Part shown: positions 9,221 to 11,291 of the stretch, in pieces
How the letters are laid out: each line of letters starts with the position of its first letter
Numbering within the stretch: the first letter of the stretch is position 1
From: Candidatus Heimdallarchaeota archaeon
Lineage (GTDB): Archaea; Asgardarchaeota; Heimdallarchaeia; Heimdallarchaeales; Kariarchaeaceae
Reading direction: 5' to 3'
Assembly (NCBI GenBank): GCA_030149205.1
Contig: JASBSB010000001.1
Coordinates: forward strand, 660,001-692,000
Length of the DNA stretch: 32,000 bases
Notes under the pieces: generated by a model
What the model saw: only the letters and a program-made list of their open reading frames with translations
The model's database searches: none
Told to the model about the DNA's origin: nothing
Made by a program: the position numbers and the translations under genes

Positions 9221-9294
9221 AAACTCCAATTCGGACAAACTTTATAGCTTCAATGATAACACCATTGTTAATACATCTGTTTCAAGTCACTATA

Positions 9295-9302
9295 TTTAAA
9301 AA
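9295..9302 (+). promoter_or_regulatory. Probable TATA box for the rpl1-rplP0-rpl12 operon
   Basis: TTTAAAAA preceded by TATA; implies a transcription start near 9325. Confidence 0.5.
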
Positions 9303-9345
9303 ACAGAAAAGTTCAGGTAAATCACAGAGGTTAATCAATCTCTAA

Positions 9346-9379
9346 CCTGCGTTTGACTGAAGGTTAATTCAGGAGCAGG
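9346..9379 (+). promoter_or_regulatory. uL1-binding RNA element (autoregulatory operator) in the rpl1 5' UTR
   Basis: CCUGC-GUUUGA-CUGAA-(GGUUAA)-UUCAG-GA-GCAGG: two helices flanking a 6x2 internal loop with G-GA-G / C-G....A-C, the known uL1 target geometry. Confidence 0.7.
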
Positions 9380-9386
9380 AGGTGAT
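9377..9386 (+). promoter_or_regulatory. Extended Shine-Dalgarno sequence for rpl1
   Basis: AGGAGGTGAT is complementary to the usual archaeal 16S 3' end (…AUCACCUCCU) and ends 5 nt before the ATA at 9392. Confidence 0.8.
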
Positions 9387-9391
9387 GACAG

Positions 9392-10042
9392 ATAGATCAC
9401 AACACAATACTAACAGCAGTAAACAAGATGAAAGAAGTCTCAAAGGAAAGAAAATTTGTCGAAAGTGTTGATATCTCTATAGGTCTGAAAGATGTAAACT
9501 TAAAGGATCCAAGTAAGAGGTTTAGAGCAGAAATTGTTCTACCTCATAAGCCAAACAAAGCAGCAAGAATTGCAGTTGTCGGAACCACAGATATCTTAGA
9601 ACGAGTGAAAGAACTCAATGTTCAACAGATGTTGAGTGATACCGATGTTGAAAACATTGCAAAAGACCCCAAGGCTGCTAAAGGCTTTGTCAAAGACATA
9701 GATTATGTCCTTGCGATCCCTCAGATGATGGCGATAGTTGGTAAAAATCTTGGACGATTTTTAGGGCCAGTTGGTAAAACACCCAGTGTGTTACCACCTA
9801 ACGCTGAGTTTGAAAGTTTCTTAGACCGATATCAAAGAATCTGCAAATTACGACTTAGGCAGAATCCTGTGATTCATGCAAGAGTTGCAACCAGAGATAT
9901 GGAAAACAACGACATAGCTGAAAATGTGGAAGTGGTGTTAAGAGAGCTTGAAAAAAGACTCGATAATGGCCCACACAATATTAAACATGTCCATATCAAA
10001 ACCACAATGGGTCCAGCTGTCGAGATAGGAGGCACAAACTGA
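9392..10042 (+). CDS. rpl1: 50S ribosomal protein uL1 (start re-assigned to ATA 9392; the ORF track uses ATG 9428)
   Basis: RKFVESVDISIGLK, EIVLPH, LGRFLGP.GK.P, IKTTMGPAV. The 12 codons before ATG 9428 encode the conserved N-terminal helix. Confidence 0.97.
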   Translation: MDHNTILTAVNKMKEVSKERKFVESVDISIGLKDVNLKDPSKRFRAEIVLPHKPNKAARIAVVGTTDILERVKELNVQQMLSDTDVENIAKDPKAAKGFVKDIDYVLAIPQMMAIVGKNLGRFLGPVGKTPSVLPPNAEFESFLDRYQRICKLRLRQNPVIHARVATRDMENNDIAENVEVVLRELEKRLDNGPHNIKHVHIKTTMGPAVEIGGTN

Positions 10043-10971
10043 TGAATCCAAGACGAATCAGGAAACAAGAGGCCTTAGCTAAATTGACAGATTTAATCAC
10101 GTCTCACAAAAACATAGGTGTGATTACTATGCAACCAATGAGTGGTTCATCAATCCATCAAATACGTCGAGACCTGAGAGAGAGCAATGCCAAATTGGTG
10201 GTGAGCAGAAATACCATCATGAGAATGGCTCTTGAACAAACGAAAAAGAAAAAGAAAAATGTGGAAGCTCTGGAACAATATGTGACAGGAAATGCTGCAT
10301 TTCTCTTTTCTGATGAAAACGTGTTCCAAGTAGCAAAATACCTTGATTCTAACAAGGTACCTGCGCCTGCTCGCCCAGGACAAATTGCTCCAATAGATGT
10401 GTTAGTTCCAAAAATGAATACTGGAGTTCCACCTGGAACGTTCATTGGAGAACTTAACGCAGTTGGACTTCCAACCAGAATTGAGAGAGGTACAATTGCT
10501 ATACCCGACGATACAGTAGTCGTTAAGGCTGGAGAAAAAGTCAGTAAAACATTGGCTAATATCCTTAGTAGACTGGGTATAACCCCATTCAAAGTTGGCC
10601 TTCAACTTGACGCAGCCGTATCTGATGGTATCCTTATAGAAAAGGATGGATTATTAACAGATTATCCTGGTATGCTGGCAACAGCACATCATCAGGCAGT
10701 TAATTTAGCCGCTAGAATTGGATATGTCACAGAAGAGACTGCTAATGCAGTTATTGGTTCTGCACAATCTGAGGCACTTGCTCTCCTGAGAGTGATTGTC
10801 AGTGCAGACCCCAACGCTGTGCCTGAAGAACTTAGGACTTTAGCTCAATCCGCAGCTCAAGTTCAAACAACACCCTCTGAAACTGATTCAGCTGATACAG
10901 CAGAAGATGAGGAAGAGGAAGAAGAAGAGGTGGACGAAGCAGACCTTGGTCTCGGTTCACTGTTCGGATAA
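10042..10971 (+). CDS. rplP0: 50S ribosomal protein uL10 (archaeal P0)
   Basis: VSRNT.M..AL, PAPARPGQIAP.DV.VP..NTG.PPG, acidic tail ending GLGSLFG; TGATG overlap with rpl1. Confidence 0.98.
   Translation: MNPRRIRKQEALAKLTDLITSHKNIGVITMQPMSGSSIHQIRRDLRESNAKLVVSRNTIMRMALEQTKKKKKNVEALEQYVTGNAAFLFSDENVFQVAKYLDSNKVPAPARPGQIAPIDVLVPKMNTGVPPGTFIGELNAVGLPTRIERGTIAIPDDTVVVKAGEKVSKTLANILSRLGITPFKVGLQLDAAVSDGILIEKDGLLTDYPGMLATAHHQAVNLAARIGYVTEETANAVIGSAQSEALALLRVIVSADPNAVPEELRTLAQSAAQVQTTPSETDSADTAEDEEEEEEEVDEADLGLGSLFG
10909..10971 (+). repeat. P0 C-terminal 20 codons; identical in protein to the aP1 tail at 11229-11291
   Basis: Both encode [20 protein letters not shown] and differ at many synonymous positions. 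Confidence 0.9.
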
Positions 10972-10988
10972 AACAATAGGTGAAAACA

Positions 10989-11291
10989 ATGGAATATTTA
11001 TATGCCGCTTTATTATTACACAAAGCTGGAAAAGATGTAACTGAAGATACCCTCACCGCTGTCTTAAAAGCTGCTGGTGTTGAGGTTGATGAAAACAGAG
11101 TAAAATCCCTGGTTGCCGCCCTTAAGGGTGTAAACATTGATGAAGCTCTTCAATCTGCTGCAATGGTAGCTGCCACTCCTATGGCTGGTGGTGCTGGCGC
11201 AGCTGAAGCAGAGGAAGAAAAACCTGCTGAAGAAGAGGAAGAGGAAGAAGTTGATGAAGCAGACCTTGGATTAGGTTCATTATTTGGTTAA
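10989..11291 (+). CDS. rpl12: Ribosomal stalk protein aP1 (L12p)
   Basis: [14 protein letters not shown]...E..L..VLKAAG; GGTGA Shine-Dalgarno supports ATG 10989 over GTG 10980. Confidence 0.98.

Follow-up and report, generated by a model that had tools for sequence, protein, structure and literature searches.

In the window analysed here, a 32,000-nucleotide stretch of a Heimdall-group genome, the leader of the uL1 gene (rpl1) contains a two-helix RNA element that stands directly before the Shine-Dalgarno (SD) sequence. The element reproduces the uL1 site of 23S rRNA, the H77/H78 junction, in circularly permuted strand order; it is kept by compensatory changes in related genomes and occurs once per genome. 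We consider it probable, by comparison with known uL1 sites, that the element is a uL1 translational operator of the uL1-P0-P1 operon, at which uL1 would bind and repress translation by a steric mechanism.

The outer helix of the element pairs CCUGC (9346-9350) with GCAGG (9375-9379), and the inner helix pairs CUGAA (9357-9361) with UUCAG (9368-9372) around a hairpin loop GGUUAA (9362-9367); between the two helices the 5′ strand GUUUGA (9351-9356) faces the 3′ strand GA (9373-9374), all on the + strand. Two helices enclosing GUUUGA opposite GA had been proposed in a sequence-only reading of the window, and the proposal is borne out by the sequence itself, by the minimum free energy (MFE) structure of 9335-9400, which is the same two-helix fold, and by the comparative pairing described below. 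For the hairpin without protein we predicted −11.5 kcal/mol, with −6.6 kcal/mol due to the outer helix, and the first SD bases are paired in the predicted structure with probability near 1. The folding energy itself is not exceptional (z = −1.27 for 9335-9400, with 25 of 200 shuffled sequences as stable; z = −0.63 for 9240-9480); a z-score of −1.27 means that energy alone cannot tell the element from chance. We also considered an outer helix that is marginal and forms only together with uL1; this variant was rejected, the helix being predicted to form alone.

The likeness to rRNA was seen in comparison with the genome's own 23S rRNA. Its L1 stalk (23S positions 2216-2273) reads GUCAG, GA, GCGU...AUGC, GAUAAUGGAACA and CUGAC in succession; the leader reads CCUGC, GUUUGA, CUGAA...UUCAG, GA and GCAGG. 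The two RNAs share the 8-mer UCAGGAGC (UCAG-GA-GC) and, on the other strand, the frame GC-G...A-CUGA; thus the inner helix is a copy of H77 and the outer helix a copy of H78. In fact, the CUGA/UCAG of the leader is identical to the corresponding part of the genome's own H77 (GUCAG/CUGAC). Strand by strand, CCUGC mimics the 3′ strand of H78, GUUUGA is a short counterpart of the 12-nt 23S strand GAUAAUGGAACA that leads from H78 to H77, the inner hairpin CUGAA-GGUUAA-UUCAG (9357-9372) is a loop-capped mimic of H77, GA is the same as the 23S GA between H77 and H78, and GCAGG, which overlaps the SD, mimics the 5′ strand of H78. The GA short strand was present in all five Heimdall-group 23S sequences examined as well as in E. 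coli 23S rRNA (2125-2126). Both closing C-G pairs are invariant in the leaders and in rRNA, and all invariant leader positions, the third H77-like pair included, have the same bases in rRNA. The internal loop had been interpreted from the sequence as the uL1 motif; it does match the H77/H78 junction of the genome's own 23S rRNA as well as the E. coli rplK operator.

While the closing pairs and the flanking bases are the same as in the 23S L1 stalk (2120-2178 in E. coli, 2216-2273 in the window's own genome), the leader differs from the stalk in several respects. The long strand has 12 nt in rRNA versus 5-6 nt in the leaders; H78 of 23S rRNA is a long hairpin with a loop that contacts domain II of uL1, and H77 continues into H76, parts that the leader does not have; finally, the opposite helix is closed. 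A shortened and weaker site is what one would expect of a regulatory mimic, judging by published work on uL1 and its mRNA (PMC2175363). The 23S rRNA of the window's order has two H77 variants, CAG/CUG and, in family f4, CGG/CCG, and both are found as the inner helix of leaders. We asked separately if the leader and 23S H77 covary genome by genome, and had to reject this: it is true for f4, with CGG/CCG in both RNAs, and fails in Heimdallarchaeaceae, where the leader has CGG/CCG and the rRNA CAG/CUG.

The order of strands is what sets the element apart. The rRNA order is H77 (5′), GA, the H78 hairpin, the long strand, H77 (3′); the order in the Heimdall leader is H78 (3′-like), the long strand, the H77 hairpin, GA, H78 (5′-like). 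The 23S rRNAs of the window's genome and of E. coli are built alike: H77 has 5 bp, 2 nt lead from it to the H78 hairpin, and 12 nt lead from there to the return strand of H77; in E. coli these parts are GGUGG (2120-2124), GA, GGCU...AGCC, GACCUUGAAAUA and CCACC (2174-2178). In the rRNA-like connectivity the short strand comes first and a loop caps the H78-like helix; in the leader the long strand comes first and the loop caps the H77-like helix. Since strand polarity and sequence frame are kept and only the capped end differs, the element qualifies, as judged by sequence, as a true circular permutation of the uL1 site. In this one respect it differs from every reference site that we examined. 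The permuted connectivity, already suspected in the sequence-only reading, therefore stands against both 23S rRNA and the E. coli rplK operator.

The latter operator, GGG-GA-GCCUC-uca-GAGGC-GUUAUUA-CCC, has the same loop motif, G-GA-G opposite C-G(N)A-C. Similar to the Heimdall leader, it resides on the mRNA of an operon that encodes uL1 (the L11 operon, rplK-rplA), has two short helices and is located just before the SD; it is an rRNA mimic serving translational feedback (PMC3616713, PMC10931766). Opposite to the Heimdall leader, it has the short strand 5′ and the H78-like helix capped, as in rRNA; besides, the E. coli site regulates L11 together with L1, whereas the Heimdall operon is uL1-P0-P1, with rpl11 located separately. 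In archaea, the uL1-P0-P1 operon of Methanococcus is regulated by L1 via a 23S rRNA mimic (PMC3616713). This MvaL1 operon (M. vannielii / M. jannaschii) is of the same type, uL1-P0-P1, as the operon in the window. Its L1 site (Hanner 1994; Kraft 1999; structures 1U63, 1ZHO and 2HW8) is reported to lie within the beginning of the L1 reading frame or close to it, and to have rRNA-like connectivity. In comparison with the Methanococcus site, the Heimdall site is wholly in the 5′ UTR and is permuted.

One more archaeal site turned up in the rpl1 leader of a Thermoplasmata MAG (L128). It reads CUGUAG-GA-GAGACCC...GGGUCUC-GUUUA-CUACAG and extends from −74 to −12 with respect to the rpl1 start. Like the Heimdall site it is in the 5′ UTR; its outer helix runs into GGAGGUG, followed by a UUG start, and its loop is G-GA-G / C-GUUUA-C. 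Unlike the Heimdall leader, it has rRNA-like connectivity, which shows that location in a 5′ leader does not require permutation in archaea. By its sequence, this site is probably another unannotated archaeal uL1 operator. An rRNA-like site was noticed also upstream of rpl1 in locus L111 (ACGG-AA-GCUU...AAGC-GUUAUUA-CCGU); we characterized it as coincidental, given its overlap with the TATA box and the disruption of its closing pair in the sister locus L119.

Conservation of the element was analyzed in the rpl1 loci of 38 relatives. The named relatives are Candidatus Heimdallarchaeota MAGs, including Ca. Heimdallarchaeum aukensis and endolithica, with a ‘Kariarchaeota’ MAG in the window's own family; the source of the DNA, described from its letters as a probable Asgard archaeon, was thus named correctly and belongs to the Heimdall group. 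Inspected by eye at the 38 loci, every readable rpl1 leader had the same architecture directly before the SD. In our main alignment (MAFFT, 16 compact rpl1 leaders), 96.3% of cells pair, and six of the ten pairs have changed on both sides; in a control with partners slid along the same alignment, pairing falls to 19-61%. A wider model-fitted set gave 94.8% pairing with double changes in eight of the ten pairs. Covariation in the outer helix involves three of its five pairs in the MAFFT alignment and all five in the wider model-fitted alignment (A3), with the compensatory series CCUGC/GCAGG to ACCGC/GCGGU to AUCAC/GUGGU; the inner helix alternates between CUGA/UCAG and CCGU/ACGG, and between CUG/CAG and CCG/CGG. 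The U-G pairs in AUCAC/GUGGU are compatible with the mRNA strand only.

Within this varying frame some positions did not change at all. In the 16-leader MAFFT alignment, the invariant columns are those of the two C-G pairs that close the loop, of the A at the end of either loop strand, and of the G-C pair that is third from the loop in the inner helix. In window coordinates, the closing pair C9350-G9375 is the same in 16 of 16 sequences, and C9357-G9372 and G9359-C9370 are invariant while the other inner-helix pairs covary; A14 and A38 are invariant in the leaders, with covariation present in both helices. The long strand begins with G in 37 of the 41 distinct leaders and has a length of 5-6 nt in 38 of them; its terminal A, present in all 41, was demanded by the scan, but it is invariant independently in the unconstrained MAFFT alignment. 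In the short strand the A is invariant and the first base may be G, A or U: the strand is AA in 27 of the 41 distinct leaders, UA in three and UAA in two, with AA, unlike the GA of rRNA, in most leaders of Heimdallarchaeaceae. Covariation across related rpl1 leaders, the check proposed along with the original reading, was therefore observed, with the loop nucleotides conserved along with the helices.

From the 16-leader MAFFT alignment we built a covariance model, R1, and searched 83 genomes of the class. A single match was present in each of 34 genomes; these genomes all belong to the window's order, and in every one of them the match directly precedes rpl1. The match in the window's own genome (E = 2.4e-12) is the element at 9346-9379. 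The element was found in every Heimdallarchaeales rpl1 leader examined and, in addition, in a sister lineage of Heimdallarchaeia (family f7); it is kept with compensatory changes in four families of the window's order (f1-f4) as well as in f7. Leaders with large insertions in the inner arm (some members of f1, together with f3 and f7) were missed by R1, with the motif visible by eye. The element was not seen in Hodarchaeales-type leaders, which are A-rich and unstructured, nor in a sample of 20 further Asgard families, most of which have rpl1 next after rpl11 with hardly any spacer; in these lineages control by uL1, if any, must use something else. Six other Asgard genomes gave weak R1 matches (E = 8e-4 to 0.04), which were judged to be chance matches, none of them being near rpl1.

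The insertions deserve a separate description. They expand the H77-like arm in f1 (L006-L008, L011), in f7 (L061, L107, L113, L116-L118) and in f3 (L018/L085). In part of f1, the window's family, the arm has acquired an A-rich bulge along with an additional CAG...CUG hairpin; the f7 insertion is ∼65 nt long and includes a CCAUGC/GCAUGG hairpin that is conserved. In the inserted leaders of f1, f3 and f7, the uL1-like loop and the closing pairs are intact. A leader of the f7 type (as in L107, L113, L116-L118), along with the uL1 N-terminus of this type, was present also in L109, a genome labelled Candidatus Bathyarchaeia; its public taxonomic label may be wrong.

The uL1 gene itself (9392-10042, + strand; Pfam Ribosomal_L1, E = 4.8e-42) is followed on the same strand by the uL10/P0 gene (10042-10971), with an ATG that overlaps the uL1 stop, and by the gene of the P1 (L12) stalk protein (10980-11291; Pfam Ribosomal_60s), the last one in the operon. 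The gene upstream of rpl1 is divergent, on the minus strand, and codes for a Thiamine_BP protein; rpl11 sits 34 kb from rpl1, and a search of the rpl11 site revealed no second copy of the element. In TGATG (10040-10044) the stop of uL1 overlaps the start of P0, with GGAGG 10 nt upstream; given this overlap, P0 is likely to be translationally coupled to uL1. The uL1 protein is of the standard type: the conserved RNA-binding segments are in place, with the invariant F22 in RKFxES and the KTTMG segment. It aligns over the full length with M. jannaschii L1 (E = 1e-37), as well as with the L1 proteins solved with mRNA or rRNA (1U63, 1MZP, 1ZHO, 2HW8).

The genome's own 16S rRNA has the 3′ end ...GGAUCACCUCCU; hence GGAGGUGAU at 9378-9386 (+ strand) is a perfect 9-nt SD, and the SD of the window's genus is the longest and strongest of the group. 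In AGGAGGUGAU (9377-9386) the outer helix covers A9377-G9379, so the number of SD bases inside the helix is two, or three if A9377 is counted. The outer helix does cover the SD AGG, as had been claimed from the sequence; the overlap amounts to just 2-3 nt in the window's genus. In Heimdallarchaeaceae the helix only abuts the SD, without overlap. Overall, the site in the relatives ends either 0-2 nt away from the SD or 2-3 nt inside it, and the position of the element relative to the SD and the start is the same in all relatives examined.

The start codon of rpl1 required closer consideration. The uL1 frame is closed by an in-frame TGA (9386-9388) inside the SD, and there is no ATG, GTG or TTG before 9428. 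In alignments, all relatives outside the genus have their ATG at the position of the window's ATA at 9392, and the second residues of the window's uL1 and of M. jannaschii L1 fall in the same column. The three further genomes of the genus (L002-L004) have AUC at the start position; in these genomes the first ATG, GTG or TTG is located 33-59 codons downstream, past the conserved RNA-binding N-terminus. With no canonical start nearby, and with the alignment to the ATG of relatives and to M. jannaschii residue 2, the rpl1 gene in the window's genus most likely initiates at AUA/AUC, 5 nt past the SD; in the window this would be the AUA at 9392.

We then have to consider whether features other than uL1 binding could account for the element. 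The strongest competitor, albeit an improbable one, is a hairpin acting without any protein, which would tune SD access or mRNA stability or sense temperature, its likeness to rRNA being coincidental. Hairpins abutting the SD are common in leadered archaeal genes, and the present one is predicted to be stable alone (−11.5 kcal/mol) with the first SD bases paired; in the folding model, such a stable hairpin could modulate SD access on its own. However, a hairpin independent of protein would not hold unpaired loop bases and closing pairs invariant while its helices covary, nor would it have any reason to copy the H77-GA-H78 of its own genome or to be confined to rpl1.

We see a still smaller chance that the element is a kink-turn (K-turn) bound by L7Ae or another K-turn protein rather than by uL1. 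The K-turn consensus consists of a C-stem, a 3-nt bulge and tandem sheared G.A/A.G pairs, and the long strand of the window can be read as a bulge plus G-A opposite the G-A of the short strand; indeed, the window and three relatives from its genus have (3-4 nt)+GA opposite GA beside a Watson-Crick stem. Archaeal L7Ae binds K-turns in many RNAs, the leader of its own mRNA included, and the H77/H78 junction was reportedly classed as a composite K-turn (Klein et al. 2001). Beyond the genus the resemblance is lost: tandem GA/GA is present in just four of the 41 distinct leaders, the short strand mostly has A or U in place of its G, and in 15 of 41 the long strand ends in UA, AA or CA, which removes the essential G.A pair. 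On the other hand, the closing C-G pairs, the 5′ G of the long strand and the H77-like CUG/CAG match the uL1 site in rRNA, and the element occurs once per genome, solely before rpl1.

Slightly less credible than the kink-turn is an operator for the stalk proteins P0 and P1, similar to the leader bound by L10(L12)4 in bacteria. P0 and P1 are indeed encoded by the downstream genes of the operon, and the bacterial L10 complex is known to autoregulate via leader RNA (PMC10931766). Yet the motif precedes rpl1 and not rpl10, and it matches the L1 stalk rather than the P0 site (H42-H44), likeness to the L1 stalk alone having been compared; moreover, the counterpart operon in Methanococcus was reported to be regulated by L1 (PMC3616713). 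A chance inverted repeat without function, for which the energy z-score of just −1.27 could be quoted, is refuted for practical purposes by the compensatory conservation in f1-f4 and f7 and by the single, highly significant model matches per genome.

With the element taken as a uL1 operator, the following mode of action could be suggested. Protein uL1 present in excess of free 23S rRNA would bind the weaker mimic in the leader. As the hairpin would, by prediction, form on its own, uL1 would meet a pre-formed site rather than induce the fold. The site ends inside or against the SD, so bound uL1 should exclude the 30S subunit; bound uL1 and the locked outer helix would together keep the subunit off the initiation region. 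P0 would then be shut off through translational coupling and P1 probably too. The AA short strand in most Heimdallarchaeaceae, along with the half-length long strand, means that affinity for uL1 cannot be assumed.

One could speculate about the origin of the site. Possibly, though we would not call it likely, the permuted operator did not descend from the bacterial or euryarchaeal operators and arose separately in Heimdallarchaeia, after rpl1 had gained its own promoter apart from rpl11; in the window's genus it would then have been joined with the AUA/AUC start and the maximal 9-nt SD. A separate origin, if true, would mean that rRNA mimics were re-invented in another topology and that uL1 reads a local three-dimensional motif whatever the strand connectivity. 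The combination of an operator, a near-cognate start and a 9-nt SD would make a two-layer throttle, with uL1 synthesis unusually dependent on free SD pairing.

Textbooks describe feedback by r-proteins via rRNA mimicry, with uL1 as the most widespread example; very few cis-regulatory RNAs, to our knowledge, are known in archaea. For bacteria and for Methanococcus, autoregulation of uL1 through rRNA mimics is established knowledge (PMC3616713, PMC10931766). The survey of archaeal r-leaders by Eckert & Weinberg (2020) contains no uL1 leader and no Asgard lineage (PMC7247131). Our literature search found no account of an r-protein mimic in permuted form, nor of r-leaders in Asgard archaea; also, no description of any cis-regulatory RNA in these archaea was found. 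In a search against Rfam 15, the region 9240-9520 had no match at E ≤ 10, and nothing in the window reached gathering score. The same search missed the E. coli uL1 operator: the classical E. coli rplK leader (L158) had no match at E ≤ 10. The Rfam blank thus says nothing on the novelty of the element; it does indicate that uL1 leaders in general are left unannotated by Rfam-based pipelines.

The Heimdall group comprises the archaea usually placed closest to eukaryotes, and the idea had been put forward in the sequence-only reading that eukaryotic L10a autoregulates via a related RNA element. This is contradicted by Takei et al. (2016), who described the eukaryotic L10ARE as "not related" to the L1 stalk in sequence or predicted structure (PMC4937301). 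What is common to L10a/L10ARE and our proposal is that an orthologous protein feeds back on its own transcript by binding; the difference is that L10ARE acts on splicing, whereas translation initiation would be the target in the Heimdall leader (PMC4937301).

What is added here is an RNA motif that is supported by covariation and is specific to the Heimdall group. The circular permutation and the group specificity are the new part; the regulator, the target and the logic are already known, so that the advance is incremental rather than conceptual. A natural circular permutation of a putative protein-binding RNA site offers a ready test of whether uL1 recognises only the local H77-GA-H78 shape. 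In practice, the motif can be used for annotation of rpl1 leaders, and it helps to fix the non-AUG rpl1 start in the window's genus.

Several other features were noted in the rest of the leader. A TATA-like box, TATATTTAAAA (9291-9301, + strand), is by archaeal consensus the probable promoter of the uL1-P0-P1 operon; it would put the transcription start near 9320-9325 and give a 5′ UTR of ∼70 nt. The stretch CACTATATTTAAAA is common to the window and the same-genus locus L004, and the leaders of Heimdallarchaeaceae have TTTAAAA-type boxes at the equivalent place. In the MFE folds, an upstream 7-bp hairpin, AGAGGUU-AAUC-AAUCUCU (9326-9343, + strand), is formed in the 5′ leader; it is not conserved in Heimdallarchaeaceae, and relatives from the window's family (L006-L008, L011) have at this place hairpins of different sequence, e.g. 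AGAAGCUC...GAGUCUUCU followed by UUUUA. The MFE folds also pair, in 9382-9400, GUGAU of the SD with AUCAC (uL1 codons 2-3), which leaves the AUA in a 9-nt loop; this pairing is not conserved in the genus relatives. In L002-L004, an upstream (G)UCUAC, located ∼10-20 nt before the motif and without equivalent in the window, is the complement of the long strand of the loop, GUAGA(C); such pairing could compete with the uL1 motif, either as an anti-operator or as a mere trace of shared ancestry.
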